The notes: a model not told the origin generated them from the letters alone. A stretch of DNA of 64,000 bases from a bacterium (GCA_965240335.1 CBDEKM010000008.1:46403-110402), one strand, 5' to 3'. Shown: positions 1,796 to 51,200, numbered from the stretch's first letter. Numbers and translations are program-made.

Positions 1796-3241
1796 ATGAA
1801 TAAAGACCAACTAGTCGATCAACTTGTGGCTGTTCTGGGCCGCGAAAACGTCATCGACGCGCCGGATCAGCTGATCGTTTACGAATGCGACGGGCTGACC
1901 ATCGACCGGAACGCGCCCCATGCCGTGGTTTTACCGACCACGACCGAGGACGTGGCGGCCGTGGTCCGGATCCTCCACGAAGCGCGCATACCCTTCGTGG
2001 CGCGCGGAGCCGGCACCGGGCTGAGCGGCGGCAGTCTTCCCCCGGACGGCGGAGTCATGATCGCGCTCACCAGGATGAACCGCATCGTGGAGGTCGACTT
2101 CCGAAATCAGCGCGCTCTTGTGGAGGCCGGTGTGGTCAACCTGCACCTGTCGAAGGAAGTCGGACGGCAGGGGTATCATTTCGTACCGGATCCTTCCAGC
2201 CAGTACGCCTGCACCATCGGTGGCAACATCGCCGAAAACTCAGGCGGCCCCCACACCTTGAAGTACGGGGTCACGACCAACCATACCCTGGGCGTGGAGG
2301 TGGTCATGCCCGACGGACAGATCACATGGTTCGGCGGCAAGGCGGACGACTCGGTAGGTTACGACCTGCGCGGTCTCCTGATCGGATCCGAGGGCATGCT
2401 GGGCATCGTCACGCGGGCGTGGGTCAAATTGACCCGCCTACCGCAGGCCTGGCGGACATTCCTGGTGGTCTTCGACACCGTGGAGGACGCGTCCCACGCG
2501 GTCGCCGGCGTCATATCACTCGGGATCGTCCCATCGGCCCTCGAAATGGTGGACAAAGTCGCCATCGGAGCCATCGAGGAAGCCTATCATTTCGGTTTTC
2601 CCTTGGACGCGGAAGCCGTGCTGATCATCGAACTGGAAGGGCATGAGGCCGGCCTGGACACCCAGGCCGAAGAGGTAGCCGCGGTTTGCCGGGAGAACCT
2701 GGCCCGGGATATCCGGACGGCGCAAGACGAGAAAGAACGCGCCTTGTTGTGGAAGAGCCGCAAACGGGCCTTCGGCGCCATGGGACGCCTGAGTCCGAGC
2801 TACTACGTGCAGGACGGGGTGGTTCCCCGCACGAAAATCCCTGACATCATGCGGGTCATCAAGACGACGGCCTTGAAGTACGAACTCCTGATCGGCAACG
2901 TTTTCCACGCCGGCGACGGCAACATACATCCCTGTATCGCCTATGACGACCGGGACAAGGAACAGGCGCGGAAGACCGTGGAAGCCAGCAACGAGATTCT
3001 GCGAGCCTGTGTCGACCTGGGAGGTTCCATAACCGGTGAACACGGGATCGGGTATGAGAAAGTCGACCTGATGCCCTTGATTTTCGACGAACCGGATATC
3101 CAGGCCATGGAAACGGTCAAAGAGGTTTTCGACGAAAACAATCTCAGCAATCCCGGCAAGATGTTTCCCACGAACCGTTCCTGTATCGGATGCGGAACCG
3201 TGGAACTGAAATACACCAATCGCCAGGCTGCGCTGCTGTAG
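1796..3241 (+). CDS. glcD: FAD-linked glycolate/2-hydroxyacid oxidase subunit GlcD
   Basis: RGAGTGLSGG, PDPSSQ..CTIGGNIAENSGGPH, FHAGDGNIHP, GEHGIG. Confidence 0.88.
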   Translation: MNKDQLVDQLVAVLGRENVIDAPDQLIVYECDGLTIDRNAPHAVVLPTTTEDVAAVVRILHEARIPFVARGAGTGLSGGSLPPDGGVMIALTRMNRIVEVDFRNQRALVEAGVVNLHLSKEVGRQGYHFVPDPSSQYACTIGGNIAENSGGPHTLKYGVTTNHTLGVEVVMPDGQITWFGGKADDSVGYDLRGLLIGSEGMLGIVTRAWVKLTRLPQAWRTFLVVFDTVEDASHAVAGVISLGIVPSALEMVDKVAIGAIEEAYHFGFPLDAEAVLIIELEGHEAGLDTQAEEVAAVCRENLARDIRTAQDEKERALLWKSRKRAFGAMGRLSPSYYVQDGVVPRTKIPDIMRVIKTTALKYELLIGNVFHAGDGNIHPCIAYDDRDKEQARKTVEASNEILRACVDLGGSITGEHGIGYEKVDLMPLIFDEPDIQAMETVKEVFDENNLSNPGKMFPTNRSCIGCGTVELKYTNRQAALL

Positions 3242-3265
3242 ATACGATGGAGCACAGGTCCGCCC

Positions 3266-4647
3266 ATGCCCGAAGAGGTGCTGCACAGCAGGCTCGGATC
3301 CCTGGTGGACGACTATGTCCCCGCGAGCGGAGATGTGCTGGCGACCCATGCCGTGGACGGGATCATTCCCGTGGCCGTCGTTGCGCCGGAGAGCCTGGAA
3401 TCCCTATCGGCCACCGTCAAAATGGCCTCGGAACAGGGATATGCCGTGATTCCGCGAGGCGGCGGCACCAAGATGGATTTCGGACTTCCGCCATCACGCG
3501 CGGACATCGTGGTGTCCCTGGAGCGGCTGAACCGGATCGTCTCCCACGAACCCGCCGACCAGACGGCCACGGCGGAGGCGGGCATCACCATGGCCGGTCT
3601 GCAGGCCGGTCTGGGAGATCGGGGTCAGTACCTGCCCCTGGATCCTCCCCACGGCCACGCCGGCACCCTGGGCGGCGTACTCGCCACCAACACATCCGGC
3701 GTCCTGCGGACCTCTTACGGCACGGCCAGGGACATGGTCATCGGGGCCCGGGTCGTCCAGGCGGATGGCACCATCGTCAAATCCGGGGGACAGGTCGTGA
3801 AGAACGTGGCGGGTTACGACATGAACAAGATGTACATCGGATCGCTCGGCACGCTCGGCATACTGGCGGAGGTGACCCTGAAACTCCAGCCGCTGCCGGC
3901 AGAAGGAAAAATGGTCGTAGGTAGCATGCCGGGCATATCGACTGCGACCGAGTGCGCCTTACGTATCATGGATTCGGAGATCATGCCATCCTTCCTGGAA
4001 CTGGCGAATCCCGTATCTTACTCGATGTTGGCACGGCATGCCGGCGGGGGACGGAGCGACGATACCCGGGGCGAATCGGGCTTTCCGCTCTTTGCGGGCA
4101 TGATCGGTCCTGAAGAAACGGTTGACTGGCAGGTCGAGGCTTGCGAGGAAATCTTCCACGACATGGGAGCGGCCGAAGTCATTCACCTGACCGGGGACGA
4201 ATACAGCCAGTGGCTTGAATCCATGCGGGAGTTTCCCGCGGGCCGGCTCATACCCCCGGGTATGCGTCCCGGTGTGACCTGCCGGGCCAGCGTAACCCCG
4301 GACGAGGTCGGTAACCTGTATCAACTGGCCGAAGACCGCTGCCGGCGGTTGTCCATCGGCTGCGGCATGCTTTCGCATTTCACCAGTGGCCATGTCGCCT
4401 TCGTCTTCTACCGGGAACAGCCTTTCCAGGAGGCGGATTCGGAAATACTGGCGAGCCTGGTCTCGGATTTGCGCAACGCCGCGGAGAAGCACGGCGCCTT
4501 CGTCGTGGAACATGCCCCGACCGTCCTGAAAAAAAGGTCGATGTCTGGGGCTCTTCCCGCGGAAACCAGCACGTCATGGAAATGCTCAAGTACCGGTTTG
4601 ATCCAAAAGGCACGTTGAATCCCGGACGGTTTGTCGGCGGAATCTGA
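3266..4647 (+). CDS. glcE: FAD-binding oxidoreductase GlcE-like; 1-nt indel in the A-run at ~4529-4535
   Basis: GGQVVKNVAGYDM, GSLGTLG; correcting the A-run gives the canonical end VDVWG...FDPKGTLNPGRFVGGI* (TGA 4645-4647). Confidence 0.8.
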
Positions 4648-4712
4648 AGGAACCCGTCGTTGCGCCGCGCCTGGATATACCACACATCGCCAGGTAAATC
4701 GAGGGAACCCAC

Positions 4713-5972
4713 ATGAAGCTGCCTGAATTCACGAAGATACGTCAGCGGTTCGACGCACCATTCGTCGAGGACCTTTCCGGGACGACCGAAGGTGAGGTCT
4801 CTCGCATGATCGAAGAGACGGGTATGCGTCCCGGTTCGACGGTGGCCGTCGCGGCGGGAAGCCGGGGCATCGGCAACATCGCGACTATCGTTAAGCACGT
4901 CGTTTCCGCACTCGAGAAGGCCGATCTGAAACCCTTTGTCGTGCCGGCCATGGGCAGTCACGGCGGTGCGACATCTGAAGGGCAGCGGCGGGTCCTGGAG
5001 AATTACGGGATCAGCGAATCGACGACCGGGTGTCCCATACGCTCAGACATCGAGCCGGCGAGTCTCGGCGAGACCGCGGACGGGCTGCCCGTATACCTGG
5101 ACCGGAACGCCCTTGGCGCCGATCATATCGTGATGGTAAACCGCGTTAAACCCCACACGGACTTCAAGGGATCGGTCGGAAGCGGCCTGATGAAGATGCT
5201 GGCCATTGGACTGGGCAAGCAGAAGGGCGCCAGCTACTACCACGGCGCGGTCTTCGAGTACGGATTCGAACACATGATCACGACCGTGTCGCAGCACGTA
5301 TTGCGGCACGCTCCCGTGGCCTTCGGACTGGCCATTATCGAAAACGCCTACGATCAGACCGCCCACATCGTCGGCGTTCCGGCGAACGTCCTGGAGACGG
5401 AAGAACGCCGGTTATTTCAGGAAGCGCAGCGCCTGATGCCGCGACTGCCGTCCGACGACATCGACATACTGATCGTCGACGAGATGGGCAAGAATATCAG
5501 CGGAACCGGCATGGACACGAATATTATCGGCCGACGCATGCAGAATTTCGAGACGGAACCCCAGAATCCGCGGATCCTGCGTATCATCGTCCGCGACCTG
5601 ACCCCGGAAAGCGAAGGCAACGCGGTGGGCATCGGACTGGCCGATTTCACCACCCGCCGCCTGGTGGACAAGATCAATCACCAGTATACCTACATCAATT
5701 CCATCACGGGCATGAGCCCGCAGAAATCCCGCATCCCCGTGTATCTGGATTCGGACCGCGAAGTCATCGAAGCCGCCTTTTCCACCATCGGCATGAAATC
5801 GCCTGGGGACGGACGCGCCGTTCGGATCAAGAATACATTGTCGCTCGGACAGGTCGCGATTTCCGATGCGCTGGTGGAGGAAATGGCCGAACGGGAAGAC
5901 ATCGAAATCGCCGACCGCCGGAGCCCGCTAGCCTTCGACGACCGCGGTACGCTGGCTTCCCTACCGGGCTGA
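4713..5972 (+). CDS. Lactate racemase (LarA) N-terminal domain / DUF2088-like protein
   Basis: AVAAGSRGI, PAMGSHGGAT, NRVKPHTDF, GKNISGTGMDTNIIGR motifs. Confidence 0.7.
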   Translation: MKLPEFTKIRQRFDAPFVEDLSGTTEGEVSRMIEETGMRPGSTVAVAAGSRGIGNIATIVKHVVSALEKADLKPFVVPAMGSHGGATSEGQRRVLENYGISESTTGCPIRSDIEPASLGETADGLPVYLDRNALGADHIVMVNRVKPHTDFKGSVGSGLMKMLAIGLGKQKGASYYHGAVFEYGFEHMITTVSQHVLRHAPVAFGLAIIENAYDQTAHIVGVPANVLETEERRLFQEAQRLMPRLPSDDIDILIVDEMGKNISGTGMDTNIIGRRMQNFETEPQNPRILRIIVRDLTPESEGNAVGIGLADFTTRRLVDKINHQYTYINSITGMSPQKSRIPVYLDSDREVIEAAFSTIGMKSPGDGRAVRIKNTLSLGQVAISDALVEEMAEREDIEIADRRSPLAFDDRGTLASLPG

Positions 5973-40424: not shown

Positions 40425-41990
40425 ATGAAACACACCGATCAACAGGACAGGGAAGAACTACACCGTACTATCTGGCAGATTGCAAACGAACTGCGTGGCA
40501 GTGTTGATGGTTGGGATTTCAAGCAATACGTGCTGGGGATGCTGTTCTACCGATTCATCAGTGAGAATCTCACCTCCTACATCAACGAGGACGAACGACG
40601 AGGAGGAATCCCAGATTTTGACTACACAAACCTACCGGACGAAAAAGCGGAGTTGGGACGCGACGAAACTGTGAAGGAAAAAGGTTTTTACATCCTGCCT
40701 TCTGAGTTGTTTGCAAATTTGGCCGATCGAGCTCGCCACGACCAAGACTTGAATGAAACGCTGGCAAGGGTCTTTGAAAATATAGAAAAATCGGCAAAAG
40801 GCACTGCGAGCGAGGACAATCTTAAGGGTCTTTTCGATGATCTCGACATAAACTCGCCGAAACTTGGCTCCACGGTAGAACAGCGGAATCGGAAGTTGGT
40901 GAGACTTTTCGACGCCATCGCAAGCCTTCGCTTCCGAGATTATGCCGGTTCTGCAATAGACGCATTCGGTGATGCCTATGAATTCCTGATGACAATGTAT
41001 GCATCACATGCGGGCAAGTCCGGTGGTGAGTTTTTCACCCCACAGGAGGTGAGTGAACTGCTCGCGGAAATCACGACTGTCGACCGGGACGAGGTGAATA
41101 AGGTGTACGATCCGGCATGTGGTTCGGGTTCGCTGCTCTTGAAGTTCTCAAAGGTGATCGGGAAGGAAAAGGTACGCCAAGGGTTCTTTGGACAGGAGAT
41201 CAACCTCACGACCTACAACCTCTGCCGTATCAACATGTTCCTGCATGACATCAATTACGAGAGTTTCGATATCGCCCTTGGCGACACACTCGCCGATCCG
41301 GCACACTGGGACGATGAACCGTTTGACGCAATTGTCTCCAATCCGCCGTATTCTATCAAGTGGGATGGCGACGCGAATCCGATCCTAATAAACGATCCAC
41401 GCTTTTCTCCGGCAGGTGTGCTAGCGCCAAAGAGCAAGGCCGATCTAGCATTCGTCATGCACATGCTTTCGTGGCTTTCCACTAATGGAACAGCAGCCAT
41501 CGTCGAGTTCCCTGGCGTGCTGTATCGCGGTGGAGCGGAAATGAAGATCCGGCGATACCTCATCGAGAACAACTACATTGACACGGTGATTCAGTTGCCG
41601 GCCGATCTCTTTTTCGGTACCGGCATCGCCACCTGCATCATGGTGCTCAAAAAGAGTAAGGCGGACAATAAAACGCTTTTCATCGATGCATCCGCCGAAT
41701 TTGTCCGAGCAAGCACCAAGAACAAGTTGGATGAGACAAACCGTGCGAAAATCCTTAAGGCGTTTACCGACCGCGCCACCGTTGAGCACTTTGCCGCGCT
41801 CGTCGACAACAAGGATATAGCTCATAACAACTACAATATCTCGATTGCAAGCTACGTTGAGGGCGAGGACACCCGCGAGGAGGTCGATATCACGGCGCTC
41901 AATGCGGAGATTGACCGGATTGTAGCGCGCCAGCGAGAACTGCGCACGGCCATCAACGACATTGTAATGAAAATAGAAAGAACGGAATGA
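40425..41990 (+). CDS. hsdM: Type I (IC-like) R-M methyltransferase subunit
   Basis: LRGSVDGWDFKQY, GEFFTP, YDPACGSGSLL, NPPY. Confidence 0.96.
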   Translation: MKHTDQQDREELHRTIWQIANELRGSVDGWDFKQYVLGMLFYRFISENLTSYINEDERRGGIPDFDYTNLPDEKAELGRDETVKEKGFYILPSELFANLADRARHDQDLNETLARVFENIEKSAKGTASEDNLKGLFDDLDINSPKLGSTVEQRNRKLVRLFDAIASLRFRDYAGSAIDAFGDAYEFLMTMYASHAGKSGGEFFTPQEVSELLAEITTVDRDEVNKVYDPACGSGSLLLKFSKVIGKEKVRQGFFGQEINLTTYNLCRINMFLHDINYESFDIALGDTLADPAHWDDEPFDAIVSNPPYSIKWDGDANPILINDPRFSPAGVLAPKSKADLAFVMHMLSWLSTNGTAAIVEFPGVLYRGGAEMKIRRYLIENNYIDTVIQLPADLFFGTGIATCIMVLKKSKADNKTLFIDASAEFVRASTKNKLDETNRAKILKAFTDRATVEHFAALVDNKDIAHNNYNISIASYVEGEDTREEVDITALNAEIDRIVARQRELRTAINDIVMKIERTE

Positions 41991-42586
41991 AAATGCACAT
42001 GGGTCGAATTGAGCAACTGATATCAAAGTTGTGCCCGAAAGGGGTGGAGTATAGGGAGTTGGACGAACTTTTTGAAGTCAAAAACGGATACACCCCTTCA
42101 AAATCAAAGCCGGAATACTGGACGGACGGATCAATCCCATGGTTCAGAATGGAGGATATAAGGCAAAATGGAAGAGTCCTCAATGATTCAATTCAACACG
42201 TGACACTTGAAGCCGTAAAGGGTGGAAAACTGTTTCCAGCGAATTCTATCATAATTGCCACGTCGGCTACCATTGGTGAACACGCACTGATAACCGTTGA
42301 TTCGCTTGCTAATCAACGGTTCACTTTTTTGACCCCAAAAGTGAACAGTTCAAATGAAATCGACATGAAGTTCATGTTCTATTACGGATTCGTTTTGTGC
42401 GAGTGGTGCAAAAATAACATCAACGCCTCAAGCTTTGCATCTGTCGATATGAGCAGATTCAAAAGGTTCAGAATCCCAATTCCCCCCTTGCCTATCCAGG
42501 CGGAAATCGTTAAAAATCTGGACGTTTTTAAAGAGCTGGAAACAGAGCTGGAAACAGAGCTGGAAACAAGAAAAAAGCGTACATAG
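41987..42586 (+). pseudogene. hsdS: HsdS N-terminal half (TRD1 plus part of the central conserved region), truncated by the IS
   Basis: LCPKGVEYREL, IPIPPLPIQ.EIV..LD.F, ELET repeats; stop codon TAG supplied by the IS left end. Confidence 0.9.
42533..42568 (+). repeat. 3 x 12-bp in-frame repeat GAGCTGGAAACA (ELET x3), equivalent to the type IC TAEL spacer repeats
   Basis: Exact copies at 42533, 42545 and 42557. Confidence 0.92.
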
Positions 42587-42597
42587 TATTTTCAGGC

Positions 42598-42626
42598 TTG
42601 ACGGTCCAACGGGGCTGCTCTATCTT
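42598..42626 (+). promoter_or_regulatory. Inward promoter from the left TIR driving the cargo ORF at 42711
   Basis: TTGACG-N17-TATCTT; AAGGAGG RBS before ATG 42711. Confidence 0.6.
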
Positions 42627-42710
42627 GGTTGTTGTTCAAGGTCATGCGTCCCGAGTCGGGCCGCTTGCCGAAGACTCAGAACTCCAGCGGACCAATTACA
42701 AGGAGGACTT

Positions 42711-43143
42711 ATGCCGAGAAAGCCGAAGGTGACAGATGACGATTTGTTCGTCATTGCCACCTATTTGTCAAATCCAAGAACCGAGCCCGAATTCCATGCC
42801 GAGATGAAGGGCGAAAACCGTGGACGTTTTGAAGAAGAGTACCTTCAGGCTACAAGGGGGGTTCACCCGCCCGTTCCCAAGAGCAGTGCTCCTTACCTGA
42901 TCCTCCCTACGACATCGAACAAACAGGGGAATCCAGCTGCGGGTTTACTTCAATGAAGCGCCTCCGGTTCCTTCCGTTGTCGCGGATCTGATCACAGACA
43001 GGGGTAAATGGCACGGACGTCCGGATGATGCTCGTATTAATCACAGCAATTTGATGTTTCAACTGTTCGAGTGCGGGTTTCTGCTTGGGGAAAATCAGGA
43101 CAGAAACAGAATCAGTAGGATGATCAAGGAGCGGTTTTCCTGA
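42711..43143 (+). CDS. Unknown cargo protein (~143 aa after removing one G at 42926-42929); candidate restriction/DNA-binding partner
   Basis: Strong RBS; corrected frame continues NKQGIQLRVYF...RINHSNLMFQLFECGFLLG...ERFS*; convergent 20-bp overlap with the MTase. Confidence 0.6.
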
Positions 43144-43913
43144 AGACCAGCAAATACTCGTGTACCTTGTTGATGATGAACTTGTAGGGATAACCTAATG
43201 GTCGCATAGAGTTGTATTCAATCTGGCGGTCCCAAATGATGATGTCTTCAAGCGACATTGCTCCGCCCTCTAAGATGACCTGCGAAGCGTCATGGTGAAG
43301 CGGGTAGAAATCCCCGTTCTTCCTTATATCCATGACGTTCAAGATGTAGTATCCGTTCACCTTCAATACTTCCGAAATTCGACCTGAGACATCCCGAAGT
43401 GCATCCAGGAACGATTCATATTCCGAGATGTTTCCAAGGTCGTCAGGATTGTCGGTATAGGGTATCGCCTCTTTTGAGTCTGCGCCTTCTTCGCCTCGAC
43501 AGTATGTCCCAATATGGTGGAGACGTGATGCATGTGTTGATGGTCTCCGCTTCGACTTTCCGCCTGATTCGTCGTGCGTCTTCGATGTGGTAACTCCACT
43601 TCGCTGTATCAGGGACATCGAACATTCGCAAACGCTCTTCGAAAATCCCACGATAAGAATGATTAAGATCGAACCCTATCGCAGTCCTGCCTGTTGAGAG
43701 TGCGGCAATCAACGTTGACCCTGAACCTGCGAACGGATCAAGTACAACTCCGCGGTGATCGGGATCGAAACAATCCAACAACTTGAGCGCGAGAGATACA
43801 GGGTAAGGCGCCGGGTGATGTCCATTTCCGGTATCCTTCCTTATATCCCGCCAGATACTGAACGAGTTTTTCAGCCAGTCTGAACCTGAGAGAGTATTTG
43901 CTCGTCGTGCCAT
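43124..43913 (-). CDS. SPPY-type (probably N4-cytosine) DNA methyltransferase, frameshift near 43490
   Basis: HPAPYP, motif I DPFAGSGST, motif IV TSPPYW, IIIWD, HEYLLVFRK. Confidence 0.85.
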
Positions 43914-44462
43914 TCTACTTCGTTTCCCCATGCATCGAACCCGGGATGTAGCCTTCGGGCGAAGACGTCAAGCTTAGGACCATCAAAGTACCGGTTGATG
44001 TTCTCATAAAGGCAGCTGGGTTTTTCGCTGTGTCGTGACACGGATGCATAGAACTCTGTTTTCATCTTGCCCAACGATGATTTCGGGAACGCGCATCGGC
44101 CCTTGTATCCGAACAGGCAATGTTCCGTCGTTATCTGATATGGGCCGAATGGACAGGGGCCTGTCGCTTTGTTCCAAGTGAGGCACGTATAATACGTGAA
44201 GCCCCAATGTTCCATCAGTTCGAATGCCTGTACGAGTATAGGCCGACGACTTGATCTGGACCGACTGTTGGTCGCCCAAAATCCAGATGAATGAATCTTG
44301 ATCAGACCATTCATCTATAGGTAGGGATGCGATTTCGCTATAAGTCATCGTGGGGTAGTCGAGCGTTGTATTCTGCTTGGGCCTGACCGCTCGCTTCCCC
44401 GTCTTGCCCTGATCCCATGGGGGATCAATCACGATGCATTTGTAGCGTTGGTGGATGAGCAT
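43871..44462 (-). CDS. MT-A70 family N6-adenine methyltransferase, frameshift near 44280
   Basis: IDPPW, YPTM, WATN, WGF.Y, W.K, TEHCL, HSEKP, DVFAR, WGNE. Confidence 0.88.
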
Positions 44463-44471
44463 TGCAAAGTT

Positions 44472-44500
44472 ATTTTACATGGCCGACTTGACCATGTAAA
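44472..44500 (-). promoter_or_regulatory. Near-leaderless promoter for the MTase pair, embedded in a 9-bp inverted repeat
   Basis: Minus strand TTTACA-N17-TAAAAT, 9 nt before ATG; TTTACATGG/CCATGTAAA palindrome 44474-44500. Confidence 0.6.
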
Positions 44501-44532
44501 CATATTTTTATTTTTAACTTACGCAATACCCA

Positions 44533-45408
44533 CTACGCGAACACGCTTTCCATGAACGTATCCCACGGCCGGGCGTCCTTGCGGTGGTTGTACTTCCACG
44601 CGGCTTCGGCGACGAACAACGGCATGAACTGGGTCGTATATCTGTGATGCGTACCGTACCACGCCCGTTTCAGTAAACTCCAAAAGCCTTCAATCGTATT
44701 CGTATGGAACGGGCCGCGTACGTATTCGTACTGGTGGTTTACCACGCCGTGTGGCATGAGATTTCTGACGGATCGATACGCCCTGTTTTCGTCCGTTATG
44801 AGGATTTTTGCGTCCGGCCTTACCGTGTTCATGACGAAGTTTAGCACGCTCTTACCTGTCGTATCTTCTGCAACCTGCGCGATCACGTTGCCGTCTCTTT
44901 CGACCGCGCCGATCACCGGTGTCTTGTCCGATTTACCCTGCCCGCCGCGCCGGTCGTCATCCCGCTTGTTCCGCTTCCTGGGCTTGCCACCCACGTAGGT
45001 TTCGTCGGCTTCGATGATACCGGCAAGCATCGGGGCTTGATCCGACGCCATAGCGGCCCGGATGCGTTGTTGCATGTACCACGCCGTTTTCTGGTTCAAT
45101 TCCAAATCGCGGGACAACTGGGGCGAGGACAGGGACTTCTTTGCATTGACAACAAGGGCGATAGCCGCGAACCATTTCTGCAAAGGTACGTGCGTTCCCT
45201 GCATGACCGTGCCGGACAGGACGTTGAAACTGGATTTGCAATCATGGCAATTCCACCGGCCAACCAGATCGCTTTCCTTCTTACGCTTGACGTTCTCGGT
45301 ACTGCCGCATAACGGGCAATACGTGCCGTTCTTGAACCGGATGTCTTCAAGGTGATCGATGCAGGACTGTTGATCGGGGAAGCGGCGGATGATCTCGAAC
45401 AGATTCAT
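44533..45408 (-). CDS. IS1595 family (ISXO2-like) DDE transposase
   Basis: Zn ribbon CPLCG...CHDC, IEADETYVGG, LITDE, HTNTIEGFWSLLKR. Confidence 0.95.
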   Translation of the reverse strand: MNLFEIIRRFPDQQSCIDHLEDIRFKNGTYCPLCGSTENVKRKKESDLVGRWNCHDCKSSFNVLSGTVMQGTHVPLQKWFAAIALVVNAKKSLSSPQLSRDLELNQKTAWYMQQRIRAAMASDQAPMLAGIIEADETYVGGKPRKRNKRDDDRRGGQGKSDKTPVIGAVERDGNVIAQVAEDTTGKSVLNFVMNTVRPDAKILITDENRAYRSVRNLMPHGVVNHQYEYVRGPFHTNTIEGFWSLLKRAWYGTHHRYTTQFMPLFVAEAAWKYNHRKDARPWDTFMESVFA

Positions 45409-45455
45409 GGTGTATCTCCGTAGCAGTAAAAGGTTTATCTCTCTTAACTACTACC

Positions 45456-45484
45456 AATATACACTATGCCGATCTACTTGTCAA
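45456..45484 (-). promoter_or_regulatory. Transposase promoter using the -35 inside the right TIR
   Basis: Minus strand TTGACA-N17-TATATT; GGAG RBS before the transposase ATG. Confidence 0.7.
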
Positions 45485-45512
45485 GCCTGAAACTACTAAT
45501 TGCGGAAAAAAG

Positions 45513-46169
45513 CAGTATGAGTTTTACAGGGACAAGTTGTTGTCGTTTGGCGATGGAATTACTCGCATGAAGCTCGAGGAAGCGTGCCAGAAAATCCGTG
45601 CAGGAGGCGACTTGCCGGATAGCTATCGCAAAGATCAGAAAACACCATCGCCGGAGTTTCCATTTCCAATCTTCTCGAATGGTTCCGGAGAAAAAGCACT
45701 TTACGGATATGCGGATAGTTACGCCGTTGCTGAGACGGCCGTTACTGTCTCTGCGAGAGGCACCATAGGATATCATGCCATTCGAGAAAGGTATTTCACA
45801 CCGATTGTACGTCTTATAACTCTTGTGCCTGACCTTGAGGTGATTTCTCCATCCTACCTAAATTACGTGCTGGATATCACAAAAATCGGTCACAGTAAAG
45901 GAAGTATTGCGCAACTGACAGTGCCCAATATAAAAAAGATCAAAATACCCGTCCCGCCCATCGGCGAGCAGAACCGCATCGTTGCCATCCTAGACCGGTT
46001 CGACGCGCTCGTGAATGATATTACGATCGGGTTGCCGGCTGAACTGGTCGCGCGTCGGAAACAGTACGAGTATTATAGGGACAGGCTTCTGACGTTCAAG
46101 CACATGCCCGAATCGGGGGACAACTGCGAAGCACTACCTGATTTTTCTACTGGCGTTTCGGTATCATAG
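45513..46169 (+). pseudogene. hsdS: HsdS C-terminal half (TRD2 plus distal conserved region)
   Basis: QYEFYRDKLLSF continuation; IPVPPIGEQNRIVAILDRFD...GLPAELVARRKQYEYYRDRLLTF. Confidence 0.9.
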
Positions 46170-46189: not shown

Positions 46190-47917
46190 TCAGGCCTTTC
46201 GACCTGAATCCGCGTCCGTCGTTGCGATAGCGTCCAGCACGCGGACAATCTCGGGATCAATTTCCTGATCGGGAATGAAATCCACCAGTTTGTGGTAACT
46301 GCTTTTATTCATCAGATTGGGGATTTTCAGCCGATTGAAGTAAGCGGAGAAGAGCGGGTTCAGAAATTCATCGCTGACCTTGGAGCTGGCGTCCCAGGGG
46401 GATCCCCGACCCAAGGTACTCATCGCCGTTGAAACTTCTTGAATGGCAGTCCGCATGGCGGCCAAACGTCTTTCGGTCTCGGTGTATTCGAAGAGCGGTC
46501 CGACCGCTTCCGATCTTCCGCTTGATGCAGCGAAGGCCTCCAGCGTCGCTTGCGTGCAAAGGTAGTTTTCGATTTCCCGCCGCTGCCATACGATGCAAGA
46601 CAGCCCGTCGGCGGGCTGATCCCTCGTGATCTCGTCCAAGACGGCAATGCCTCGCAGCGCGGGCAGGGCTTCCCTTAGACCGTGATAGTGGCTTTCCGCC
46701 TTCGCCAGCCGGTTTCCAATATAGTGGACGAAGGGACGTTCGAGTGCGTGCATCGCCTCGAGATGGTCCAGCCGTTTCGCGAAGGCCTGCAGAATCGCGA
46801 GGTCTGTCGACCCCTCCAGATACAGCACCCAGCCGGTCTGGCCGGCTTGTGTATACTGTTCGAAACCGATCTCACGTAACGCCTTGAGCGCTTGGCTGCC
46901 ACGGTCGTCGATCCGGTGTGGGTTCCCGATGAAGGCGACGACCGTATCCTTGCCCGCTGCTTCGTTCAGCAGGACTTCGGAGTGGCTGGCCACGATGACC
47001 TGACAACCGTTTTCCACCGCCTCCTCGGAGATCATGCGGTAGATCTGCCGTTGCCGAAGGATTTCGAGATGGGCGTCGGGCTCGTCGAGCAGGACGACCG
47101 CGCCAGGATTGGCGTGCATGTACGCGAGGAGAAGCAGCGTCTGCTGCATTCCTCGCCCGCTGGAGGATAGGTCAAGACTTACACCATTCTCCCGATATGT
47201 CATGGTGACCTCGCCCCGTTCGACCAGATATTTCGGTGGGTCGATTTCAGCGCCGAATAGCCGGTCTATCCGCGCCACAATGGCCTCCCAGCGACAGGGA
47301 TCTCCTTCGGAGACCTGAAAGCAAAGGTTGCGCAAAACCTCCGCGGTCCGGCCTTCCCCCACGCGTACGTAGACCGCACCCGGATCCAGCCGCGTTTCGG
47401 TGGCTGCAAGCCCGGACATGGGGGGTAGGAAGGCGACCTCCACAGCACCAGCCTCGGGGGGAACGACCATGCGGGAGTCTGCGTCTTCATCGGTACGCAG
47501 GGGCCGACAGTAAATCGATTCCTCGTTGGCATAATCGAATTCCAGTCCACAATTCCATTCGCCCTGCTTCCCGACTCCGCAGACTATCACGTCAATGCGG
47601 ATATTGGATGTCTTCGGCCCGCTGATTGTTTGTCGAACGTTCCGCGTGCGAAGCGCTCGCCAGAGCATATTGGCCGATGGAACGGGCATGGCGATCAGGT
47701 CGCGGCGGTTAACCGTTACCCCGGGTCGGCGCTCCGGTGCCGGCGATCTGGAACGGCGCTCGATCCATCGCTTCAGGCCGGTGTTCCAGAGCGCCAGCGC
47801 CTGCATTGCCGACGTTTTCCCGGAGTTGTTCGGACCGATGAACACGACGGGATTGGCGAGTTCTATGCGAACGTCATCGAAAGGCTTGAAATTCCGCACG
47901 GTTAATTCTGTCAACAA
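46190..47917 (-). CDS. OLD-like ABC ATPase with C-terminal TOPRIM-like domain
   Basis: Walker A GPNNSGKT, signature SSSGRG, LLDEPDAHL, ASHS H-loop, LEGSTD...VLDE, RREIENYL. Confidence 0.75.
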   Translation of the reverse strand: MLTELTVRNFKPFDDVRIELANPVVFIGPNNSGKTSAMQALALWNTGLKRWIERRSRSPAPERRPGVTVNRRDLIAMPVPSANMLWRALRTRNVRQTISGPKTSNIRIDVIVCGVGKQGEWNCGLEFDYANEESIYCRPLRTDEDADSRMVVPPEAGAVEVAFLPPMSGLAATETRLDPGAVYVRVGEGRTAEVLRNLCFQVSEGDPCRWEAIVARIDRLFGAEIDPPKYLVERGEVTMTYRENGVSLDLSSSGRGMQQTLLLLAYMHANPGAVVLLDEPDAHLEILRQRQIYRMISEEAVENGCQVIVASHSEVLLNEAAGKDTVVAFIGNPHRIDDRGSQALKALREIGFEQYTQAGQTGWVLYLEGSTDLAILQAFAKRLDHLEAMHALERPFVHYIGNRLAKAESHYHGLREALPALRGIAVLDEITRDQPADGLSCIVWQRREIENYLCTQATLEAFAASSGRSEAVGPLFEYTETERRLAAMRTAIQEVSTAMSTLGRGSPWDASSKVSDEFLNPLFSAYFNRLKIPNLMNKSSYHKLVDFIPDQEIDPEIVRVLDAIATTDADSGRKA

Positions 47918-48206: not shown

Positions 48207-51200
48207 ATGAGTGAAACCCCTACCTATAACCTAGTCGCCGAGCAGGTGCAGAGTACCGTCGTGGCGGAATACGCGCCGGGGCAGTACCGCGCCGAAAACT
48301 ACCAGACCGAAGCTGATCTCGAAGGTGCATTCATTGAACAGCTCGAATCGCAGGCGTACCAGTATTTCCAGATCGGCGACGAAGCCGGTATGATTGCGAA
48401 TCTACGAGTTCGGCTGGAGGAACTCAATGACTACCGTTTCAGCGACAGTGAATGGGAGCAGTTCTTCACTGCCGCATTGGCTAACCAAAACGACGGTATC
48501 GAAGAAAAGACCGCGACGATTCAGGAAGATTACGTCAAGATTCTTACCCGCGATGATGGTTCGAAGAAGAACATTTATCTCCTCCGCAAAGACAACATCC
48601 ACGATAACAAACTGCAGGTCATCAGCCAGTACGCAACCGACAGTGGGCTGTACGCAAACCGATACGACGTTACCGTTCTAGTAAACGGCTTGCCGCTCGT
48701 GCATGTCGAACTCAAACGACGCGGCGTTCCGATACGAGAGGCATTCAACCAGATCAATCGCTATCAGCGCGAGAGTTTCTGGGCGTCAGCTGGACTGTAC
48801 GAGTACATTCAGCTTTTCGTCATTTCGAATGGCACCAACACGAAGTACTACAGCAATACGACCCGTAATCAGCATGTGAAGGAAGCCCACCACGGATCGG
48901 TGAAGTACGTCAAGCGATCGAGTAACAGCTTCGAATTTACGAGTTGGTGGGCCGATTCGGTCAATAAGCCCATCATGGATCTGATGGATTTCTCGCGGAC
49001 TTTTTTCGCAAAGCACACACTGCTGAATGTCCTGACACAATACTGCGTATTCACAACCGACCGGCAACTGCTCGTCATGAGACCGTACCAGATTGTTGCG
49101 ACGGAACGTATACTGAATCGAATTGAAATCAGTACCAACCACAGGAAACTGGGCTCGGTCGAGGCCGGCGGATACATATGGCATACCACAGGCTCTGGCA
49201 AGACCCTGACGAGTTTCAAGACGGCGCAGTTGGCAAGCAGACTAGAGTTCGTCGACAAGGTGCTGTTCGTGGTAGACCGGAAGGACTTGGACTATCAGAC
49301 CATGAAGGAGTACGACAAGTTCGAGAAAGGCGCTGCGAACAGCAACACCAGCACGGCGATACTGCAAAAGCAGATCGAAGACCCAAACGCACGCATCATC
49401 ATAACGACGATTCAAAAGCTGGATCGATTTGTAAGGCGAAACCGCGAACATTCGATTTTCAAACAACATGTGGTCCTCATATTCGATGAGTGCCATCGTT
49501 CGCAATTCGGCGAAATGCACGCCGCAATAACGAAGTCATTCTCGAAATACCATTTGTTTGGATTTACCGGCACGCCGATCTTTGCGGCCAACGCCGCTTC
49601 CGGCGGCCGGCCTGACCTGAAGACCACAGAACAAGCATTCGGCGAGAAGGCACACACCTACACGATCGCAGATGCTATCGAGGACAAGAACGTACTTCCT
49701 TTCAAGGTGGATTACGTCTCAACGGTCAAAGAAGCAGAGGATATCGAGGACGAGCAGGTAGCCGATATAGATCGCAAGGCGGCATTGGCCTCTCCGGAAC
49801 GGGTAGCGAATATCGTGCGCTACATCTGCGAGCACTTCGACCAGAAAACCAAACGAAACAGTTTTTACAAGTTGAAGGACCGGCGGCTGGCCGGATTCAA
49901 TTCGATTTTTGCCGTAGCCTCTATCGAAATGGCCAGGCAGTATTACACTGAATTCAAACGGCAATTATCGGATGCACCGAGCGACAGAAAACTGAAGGTG
50001 GCTCTGATCTACAGCTTCGGCATGAACGATGAAGACTTAGACGGAATGGTGGACGAAAATCCGGATGACACGAGCGGACTTGACGCGAGTTCACGGCACT
50101 TCCTAGAAGGAGCGATCAAGGATTACAATGCCATGTTCGGAACGTCTTACGGTACTTCATCCGACAAGTTTCAGAATTACTACAAGGATGTAAGCGAGCG
50201 GGTAAAGAACCGTGAAATCGACGTACTCGTCGTGGTCAACATGTTCCTGACGGGCTTCGATGCAACGACGGTGAATACACTATGGGTAGACAGGAATCTT
50301 CGTCTGCACGGATTGCTGCAGGCGTTTTCACGCACTAACCGCATTCTCAACAGCATAAAGACATTTGGCAACATCGTCTGCTTTCGAAATCTGGAGACGG
50401 CCACGAACGAATCAATCGCGCTTTTCGGCAACCGGGAAGCAGGTGGGCTTGTACTCCTGAAAACCTACGGAGATTACTACTACGGTTATCTGGAAGGCGA
50501 CAAAGTGGTGCGCGGGTACGCGGACCTGTTGGACGAACTGCTGGAGAAGTATTCTGTCGGCGCTCCTATCATTAGCGAGCAGTCCCAGCGGGATTTCATC
50601 AGGCTATACGGTACCATTCTGCGGGTCCGGAATATCCTCACGACCTTCGATGAGTTCAAGGGCAGTGAGATCCTTTCGCCGCGCGATCAACAGGACTACC
50701 ACAGCATGTACATTGATCTGTACAATGATTTTCGACCAGGTGGTGACGGGGAAAGCCAGAACATCAACGATGATTTGGTTTTTGAAATGGAGCTGATAAA
50801 GCAGATCGAGATCAACATCGACTACATCCTGGAACTCGTGAAAAAGTATCACGAGGGCCACCGTAAGGACGGCGAGGTGTTGATCGATATAGAGAAAGCC
50901 GTGGACTCAAGCGTTGAGCTGCGGAACAAGAAAGACCTTATCCAGCAGTTCATCGCTTCGCTTGGGGACCATACCGACGTGGATCGTGACTGGCAACAAT
51001 ATGTCGAGGAACGAAAGAAGGACGAACTTGAGCAGATTCATATCGAGCGAGAACGTTGATCGAGACGCGACGTTTCGTTTTATGCGCAATGCGTTTTCGC
51101 GACGGGGGCGTTCCAACTACCGGCACGGCTCTTTCCACTGTCCTGCCCCCGGGGGGACGATTCTCGCCCAGCGGCGAACGTGCAAGAAAGAAAGAGCGCA

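Follow-up and report, generated by a model that had tools for sequence, protein, structure and literature searches.

The window analysed here, 64,000 nucleotides of a bacterial genome (GCA_965240335.1, CBDEKM010000008.1:46403-110402), contains an insertion sequence (IS) of the IS1595 family that carries three passenger genes and interrupts hsdS, the specificity gene of a type IC restriction system. Most probably this is a transporter IS (tIS) bearing a solitary methylation module, made up of two DNA methylases of different classes and a small, presumably DNA-binding partner, with no restriction system on board. An earlier note on this DNA had outlined the structure of the element and had proposed that it acts as a mobile restriction-modification (R-M) module replacing the resident type I specificity, a proposal that is weighed below together with the other readings.

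The limits given in the earlier note proved exact (Table 1) and the data correspond to a single-unit insertion with passengers. The same 8-bp target-site duplication (TSD), GAAAAAAG, flanks both ends of the element as had been reported, and 8 bp is the target duplication given by ISfinder for the IS1595 family. The announced 25-bp terminal inverted repeats (TIRs) are also found at both ends and are imperfect, the outermost 25 nt agreeing in 21 positions (the mismatches are at positions 3, 5, 6 and 12) and a 19-nt core being identical in 18. At up to 2 mismatches this core occurred twice in the window versus 0 times expected from 100 shuffles. All three cargo genes are located between the left TIR and the transposase, and the TSD and the restoration of hsdS bracket the full 2,927 bp. 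As stated there, excision in silico (41987-42577 joined to 45513-46169) rebuilds one HsdS open reading frame (ORF) of 415 aa with no internal stop and with the two PF01420 halves, and residues 1-395 of this protein align with the 418-aa HsdS of a congener. Both junctions with hsdS are bridged by contigs (42526-42810 and 45360-46100) of the only public run holding this stretch, available as contigs at a word depth of ~2, with at least 52 letters on each side; as the run could be that of the source sample itself, the bridging is not independent support. No joint pointing to an empty allele was listed for this run, a negative that carries no weight at such a depth. The hsd locus and the element share a low GC content (0.43-0.51) compared with 0.589 for the genome.

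The transposase is intact, as the earlier note had it, with 291 codons uninterrupted by any stop and scores well above the cut-offs of the IS1595 profiles: 133.6 bits for PF12762 (cut-off 27) and 186.8 bits for the IS1595 model NF033547 (cut-off 75), together with 35.4 bits for PF12760. The transposase type with its zinc ribbon, the short TIRs and the 8-bp TSD are all those of the IS1595 family. Three promoter-like sites could be found, all of them consensus matches only and their number not above chance. One (TTGACA-17-TATATT, 45484->45456, 11 of 12 consensus positions) lies in the transposase-side TIR and faces the transposase. The one upstream of the methylase genes (Table 1) sits in a hairpin with a 9-bp stem between the transposase stop and the MT-A70 start, and a weaker one (TTGACG-17-TATCTT, 42598-42626, 9 of 12) is found at the cargo-side TIR, directed inward toward the small gene.

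The cargo consists of an MT-A70 family methylase, an SPPY N4/N6 DNA methylase and a third gene, orf3. The two methylases named in the earlier note are both present, each of them split over two frames in the assembly, and the 81-aa "convergent unknown ORF" that it listed is there too, being only the front of a frameshifted ~143-aa gene that belongs to the methylase module. The catalytic motifs DPPW, TSPPY and FxGxG were identified in the methylases. In MT-A70 enzymes DPPW goes with N6-adenine methylation, while SPPY goes with N4-cytosine methylation. The MT-A70 gene is broken at an A4 run (44278-44281) and codes for 196 aa once one A is omitted. The N4/N6 methylase is broken at CC 43485-43486, directly after TSPPYWDIL, and reaches 268 aa when one C is left out, its homologues being of ~262 aa (599 matches, the best at 58-60% identity). 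Its domain order is permuted: positions 133-219 of PF01555 match the N-terminal fragment and positions 9-107 the C-terminal one, and in the solved beta-class enzymes it is the C-terminal parts that match, and only over the first ~110 residues of the protein. The frame of orf3 is broken at a G4 run (42926-42929) and gives 143 aa with one G fewer; its 3' end overlaps the methylase genes by 20 nt (43124-43143), and a contig of the public run (42927-43485) spans this junction. No Pfam or NCBIfam match and no HNH domain were detected in orf3, nor could a nuclease domain be recognised in any ORF of the element. Because orf3 has no HNH nuclease domain the cargo is not a recognisable R-M system, and a module with no nuclease would only be able to methylate. 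The structure predicted for orf3 (pLDDT 93) had no Foldseek match at E<=0.001 in the PDB and no usable match in the ESM Atlas.

The same genes are found together elsewhere. Taking one genome per species, we collected 80 loci with a related N4/N6 methylase, and in 11 of them an MT-A70 gene 54-78% identical to the one in the window is located directly upstream on the same strand, the third gene following the methylases also on that strand. This third gene comes in two forms. It is short (123-148 aa) in L020, L023, L024, L031 and L030, the latter lacking the MT-A70 gene, and long (270-338 aa) with a C-terminal HNH domain (PF13391/PF01844) in five loci (L022 and L025-L028); in L029 there was a tblastn match to it with no called ORF and in L021 no third gene was found. 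The orf3 protein aligns with the entire short form and, in the HNH-bearing long form, with the N-terminal domain. HNH is absent from the third gene both in the window and in its closest relatives. A search for longer relatives of orf3 retrieved none, a weak negative since the long form exists in L022. The short family is well populated, with 71 clusters mostly of 143-153 aa at 45-72% identity, and has no Pfam or NCBIfam name. The pairing of the two methylases with an HNH nuclease in the sister loci is what an asymmetric-site type II system would be expected to show, and it fits methylation of both strands of such a site, the role that the earlier note gave to paired m6A/m4C methylases. Only one of the 80 loci carries an IS1595-type transposase, L023:3036-7340 from a Rhodothermales metagenome-assembled genome (MAG; OZ253559.1). 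There the same three-gene cargo is found in an unrelated 4.3-kb IS1595 element, with a transposase only 36-38% identical, TIRs of 28 nt and an 8-bp TSD, TTTGAAAT. The transposase of L023 comes in two parts (3150-3731 and 4434-4946), between which lie ~700 nt of unexplained sequence, and a 119-aa ORF is located between transposase and MT-A70. In L030:4855-8070, from a Cytophagia MAG, the methylase is a 641-aa protein in which a D12-class and an N4/N6 enzyme are fused, and after it come the 123-aa homologue of orf3 and a separate 303-aa protein with no Pfam match; in this variant the small protein may have a partner encoded by a gene of its own.

The genome itself contains two further cargo-bearing relatives of the element, with transposases 78% and 72% identical in DNA, and the CGCAAT...CTTGAC motif of the transposase-side end is present in both. 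The one at C16:48349-51288 (L006 1001-3940) has 2,940 bp, the TSD GATTAAAC, an intact transposase, a 171-aa ORF and an Eco29kI-family nuclease (190 bits) beside a 284-aa gene with a faint methylase match, and could amount to an entire type II R-M system carried by an IS. The other, C14:274079-277160 (L011 580-3661), of 3,082 bp and with the TSD AATTTCTA, carries a 190-aa ORF and a 403-aa fusion of an N4/N6 methylase and an HNH nuclease, and its transposase is frameshifted. The 171/190-aa accessory ORF is common to these two elements and absent from the one in the window and from 14 other loci. For a fourth transposase, located in C1, no cargo could be recognised. All three elements of this genome have 8-bp TSDs. 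Further TIR-like ends were seen near contig ends (C12:78261-78286 and C20:662-687), and more elements of the lineage may be hidden at assembly breaks.

Relatives of the transposase (E<=1e-20) were found in 15 of the 29 other genomes of the family, all belonging to the same genus, and no close relative outside the genus appeared among 33 genomes of the phylum. The plasmid-borne IS1595 transposases found are at most 40% identical to the one in the window, and in the two plasmid relatives inspected no annotated methylase adjoined the transposase. From the 36 congener places listed we fetched 12 loci, the eleven best distinct ones plus one at 45% identity. Paired ends could be identified in eight of these (1,715-4,298 bp), seven with perfect 8-bp duplications, and the eleven duplicated targets have 75% A+T compared with 41% for the genome. 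Considering these 12 loci and the four of the genome under study, a methylase (PF01555/PF05063) or PF09517 nuclease gene is located at the 3' side of the transposase in 13 of 16; the other three are a copy disrupted when an IS3-family element inserted, one whose transposase is truncated, and that in C1. The cargo types include plain N4/N6 methylases, methylase-HNH and methylase-Mrr-like fusions, Eco29kI systems (also in the L152 element) and the MT-A70/SPPY/orf3 module. One nested insertion, L159:4141-8438 in congener G028, is an IS1595 element with TSD CACAAGAG whose transposase is broken by an IS3-family (rve) transposase gene, the remaining ORFs having no Pfam match. The complete genome of congener G016 contains two 2.46-kb copies (L156:3495-5950 and L157:5031-7496) at different sites and with different 8-bp duplications, the only difference over 2,456 columns being a poly-C tract with 19 C in one copy and 29 in the other. 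Two near-identical copies with different TSDs indicate that cargo-bearing units do transpose. The poly-C tract lies inside their N4/N6 methylase-Mrr-like gene and decides whether it is in frame, the gene being split in one copy (192+272 aa) and whole in the other (412 aa), which has the look of a phase-variable methylase carried by a transposable element. A tentative suggestion, which we consider possible at best, is that this IS1595 lineage specialises in methylase and restriction cassettes, that these, if active, are hopping and sometimes phase-variable epigenetic or defence modules, and that the conserved nuclease-less ~145-aa partner would then be a new DNA-recognition or regulatory component of solitary methylase pairs.

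With one base omitted at each of the three runs in the cargo genes, uninterrupted ORFs of 143, 268 and 196 aa are obtained, and the repaired orf3, N4/N6 and MT-A70 proteins align end to end with the intact ones of L031 at 48, 59 and 74% identity (the last over 176 aa), from which it follows that there is one lesion per gene and no other damage: an extra base in a run of 2-4 nt, and no other stop or truncation. Phase variation of the cargo was rejected as an explanation, the sites being runs of only 2-4 bases. As a gauge of assembly errors, 400 kb of a complete congener supplied 165 ORFs with a minimum length of 300 aa, and for 119 of these an orthologue with 55% identity or more could be found in this genome. 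One hundred of them were intact, 11 frame-split and 8 otherwise partial, with 20 frame changes (10 in each direction) over ~166 kb, about one per 8 kb and often at short homopolymers; three genes had three changes each. With such a rate the frameshifts of the cargo may well be errors, and with 11 of 111 conserved genes frame-split any pseudogene call in this genome needs confirmation at the level of reads. Furthermore, each of the ten internal contig ends listed for the public run falls in a homopolymer, stopping one base before its far end, and the three frameshift sites of the cargo are exactly the places of three of these ends, at most a hint of disagreement between reads at these sites, as such holes prove nothing. 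We conclude that the three frameshifts are probably consensus errors rather than real decay.

Several observations weigh against a solitary methylation module on a tIS and have to be set beside this. Three frameshifts in 1.85 kb versus 0.22 expected are ~13 times the mean of the assembly, while none was found in ~8.2 kb of the adjoining hsdM, hsdS, hsdR, ATPase and transposase genes, and the cargo may therefore be truly decayed. The orf3 gene, inverted here relative to the methylases, is co-directional with them in all related loci, and the inversion could have uncoupled it from the operon. In a wide structure search the seven top rows for orf3 were all LAGLIDADG domains, with Z of 3.0-5.0, below the stated chance level, and root mean square deviations of 3.6-4.5 A over 85-95 aligned residues; no LAGLIDADG sequence motif was noted. 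Finally, the exact element is single-copy. The further copies of the cargo between these TIRs and the empty hsdS alleles that the earlier note had suggested looking for did not appear: there is no second copy in the genome and no cargo DNA in the 29 other genomes of the family, six of which encode proteins similar to the N half of HsdS, at best 39% identical and with no orthologous allele, empty or otherwise. Two metagenome scans likewise yielded no near-identical copy: a 21-nt TIR pattern had 0 matches, and the 44 loci recovered with an MT-A70 fragment did not exceed 39% identity. The mobility of this exact combination of cargo and IS consequently rests on its own TSD. If the frameshifts are real, the passengers would be inert and the element an oversized IS disrupting hsdS, a reading to which the inverted small gene and the already lost nuclease domain also lend themselves. 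The single extra base per gene, in short runs and in an assembly where some genes have three such events, speaks for errors instead, as does the hint from the contig ends, and we regard true decay as unlikely though far from negligible.

The type I locus comprises hsdM, the split hsdS, an AAA ATPase gene on the minus strand and hsdR. It is of type IC (EcoR124-like) as judged from sequence comparison, because HsdR matches the EcoR124 HsdR (2w00_A, E 2.1e-240 across residues 9-829) and the N half of HsdS matches that of EcoR124II (7bst_A, E 2.5e-21). The insertion point is the central coiled coil (D1). Residues 1-197 of the N half are host-derived, the final 2 codons and the stop being supplied by the element, and ~13 final residues of the D1 helix are lost from it. 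The central conserved region of hsdS also contains three LETE repeats that stop 2 nt ahead of the target duplication. According to passages of PMC3874165, the 12-bp repeat (TAEL) in the central HsdS helix of type IC enzymes fixes the spacer length of the recognition site. The LETE repeats are the counterpart of the TAEL repeats of EcoR124I/II, in which the spacer depends on the number of copies, and slippage there could possibly change specificity. A third, partial PF01420 (HsdS-type) match was seen in this genome at C12:75109-75438. The ATPase (46190-47917, minus strand, 575 aa, AAA_15/AAA_21) is located between hsdS and hsdR, and only its first ~50 residues match MADS3 and PtuA (NCBIfam), far below the cut-offs; it is a candidate defence gene lying within the type I locus.

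Table 1 Features of the transporter IS and of the interrupted type I locus (positions counted from the first letter of the window)
Feature	Position	Strand	Details
hsdM, 521 aa, intact	40425-41990	+	PF02384 374 bits, PF12161
hsdS N-terminal half (target recognition domain TRD1 and most of central coiled coil)	41987-42586	+	PF01420 122.7 bits
Three tandem copies of 12-nt unit AGAGCTGGAAAC (LETE x3)	42532-42568	+	repeat copies 100% identical
Left TSD copy, 8 bp, GAAAAAAG	42570-42577		sequence
Whole transporter IS	42578-45504	-	2,927 bp, GC 0.51
Cargo-side TIR	42578-42602	+	
orf3, third cargo gene	42711-43143	+	homologous to ~145-aa family and to N-terminal domain of HNH enzymes
SPPY N4/N6 DNA methylase, TSPPY motif, permuted order	43124-43931	-	PF01555 on both fragments
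MT-A70 family methylase, DPPW motif	43871-44462	-	PF05063 on both fragments
Promoter-like TTTACA-17-TAAAAT upstream of methylase genes	44472-44500	-	10/12 consensus match
IS1595-family DDE transposase, 291 aa, uninterrupted	44533-45408	-	PF12762, PF12760, NF033547
Transposase-side TIR	45480-45504	-	
Right TSD copy, 8 bp, GAAAAAAG	45505-45512		sequence
hsdS C-terminal half (central helix end, TRD2, C-terminal helix)	45513-46169	+	PF01420 73.6 bits; in frame, no stop
hsdR, 950 aa, intact, type IC	48207-51059	+	EcoR124 HsdR 2w00_A, PF12008 EcoR124_C

The earlier note took the insertion to disable the resident type I specificity, a step that the type of the locus does not support. PMC3874165, in passages on truncated subunits, reports that Tn5-truncated EcoDXXI HsdS and the EcoR124I delta-50 form act as homodimers with palindromic specificity, and that type IC S genes truncated at the N and C termini regenerate the wild type when co-expressed. 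As truncations and split halves of type IC HsdS can stay functional, the interruption of hsdS cannot be assumed to abolish specificity. In the window both halves are open and undamaged, and the N half-subunit could pair with itself on a palindromic site or, both halves being expressed, these could reassemble the original enzyme. Against this, the N half no longer has the final ~13 residues of its D1 helix, and the promoter-like sites all face inward with none toward the C half; a type I specificity changed in this way seems to us rather improbable.

In the interpretation of the earlier note a functional mobile R-M or epigenetic module would have knocked out the type I specificity and installed methylation of its own at an asymmetric site, in what amounts to an R-M swap by transposition. 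Two methylase classes do adjoin each other as in type IIS-like systems, the sister loci add an HNH nuclease, hsdS is physically interrupted, and other elements of the lineage carry apparently complete R-M genes (the Eco29kI systems of C16 and L152). However, orf3 ends before the HNH domain of its long relatives, leaving no restriction component to be recognised. The installed methylation would have to come from genes that are all three out of frame as assembled, in a frameshift-rich assembly, hsdM and hsdR are intact, and the HsdS halves of type IC systems can, in those passages of PMC3874165, stay active. Such a swap is therefore quite doubtful, with little chance of being correct. That the assembler mis-joined the element into hsdS, as might be feared in an error-prone draft genome with related IS copies, is very unlikely because a perfect 8-bp duplication and an in-frame hsdS would not be expected from a mis-join, contigs bridge both junctions, and the other IS copies, only 72-78% identical in DNA, are too diverged for repeat collapse.

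Returning to the solitary methylation module on a tIS, the following course of events can be proposed. The zinc-ribbon DDE transposase, expressed from the promoter-like site in its own TIR, would recognise the two imperfect 25-bp ends and move the whole unit to an AT-rich target, producing the 8-bp duplication; insertion in the D1 coiled coil has split HsdS into an N and a C half. Elsewhere the cargo makes up a type II system of the asymmetric-site kind, formed by the MT-A70 enzyme (predicted to make N6-methyladenine), the permuted SPPY enzyme (predicted to make N4-methylcytosine) and a third protein. In the full systems this third protein has an N-terminal domain fused to HNH, and here it is represented by the widespread nuclease-less form of ~145 aa. 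The small protein may bind the site of the module.

The kind of element described here is already known, since both tISs and R-M units bounded by inverted repeats have been described, and the one in the window joins it as a well-bounded new member, its cargo unreported so far and its target notable. The tIS concept was defined on the IS1595 family, as stated in the sections of PMC3129680 and PMC9330008 that treat it, and like those tISs the element has a zinc-ribbon DDE transposase, imperfect TIRs, an 8-bp TSD and passengers between the transposase and one end. No description of an MT-A70 methylase, a permuted N4/N6 methylase and a nuclease-less partner on an IS1595 element was found in the literature searched. 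Furuta, Abe & Kobayashi 2010 describe compact R-M or M units that have imperfect inverted repeats and 8-bp direct repeats at their borders; the Neisseria gonorrhoeae unit includes a transposase-like gene (COG3677), and an IS1595 paper of 2009 (Siguier, Gagnevin & Chandler) is cited there for solitary M genes and R-M systems with ISs on their flanks (PMC2853133). Those units have R-M genes and a doubtful or absent transposase, whereas the element in the window has an intact transposase and no nuclease, and, unlike them, has as its target the specificity gene of another R-M system. The cases of EcoDXXI (Tn5) and EcoR124I HsdS(delta50) are similar in that a type IC hsdS with a 12-bp repeat is cut near the central conserved region. 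However, their truncated S was shown to work as a homodimer, which in the present case is only a possibility, the break is inside D1 and not in the C-terminal TRD, and the repeat encodes LETE instead of the TAEL of the EcoR124 type. In type IIS-like R-M systems such as MnlI and Eco31I, two methylases of different classes accompany an HNH nuclease. Compared by description only, their layout is like that of L022 and L025-L028, with a non-catalytic N-terminal domain ahead of the C-terminal HNH domain, while the third gene in the window has only the N-terminal domain of the HNH enzymes in that layout.

It is well known that R-M genes move, yet methylase genes that are clearly bracketed by defined ends and a TSD, with an intact transposase, are known from few cases. 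This locus is one such case, accompanied by a dozen sister elements, and has landed in the specificity gene of another defence system. The small partner represents a conserved and uncharacterised family that goes with a widespread methylase pair. Should the cargo be dead, what we see is an ordinary disruption by an IS. If it is active, the element bears on the diversification of methylomes in the genus, on the spread of solitary methylases and on the evolution of type I specificity by transposition. Active cassettes of this lineage could rewrite the methylome of a cell and, as in this locus, could also re-cut a resident type IC subunit into half-subunits.

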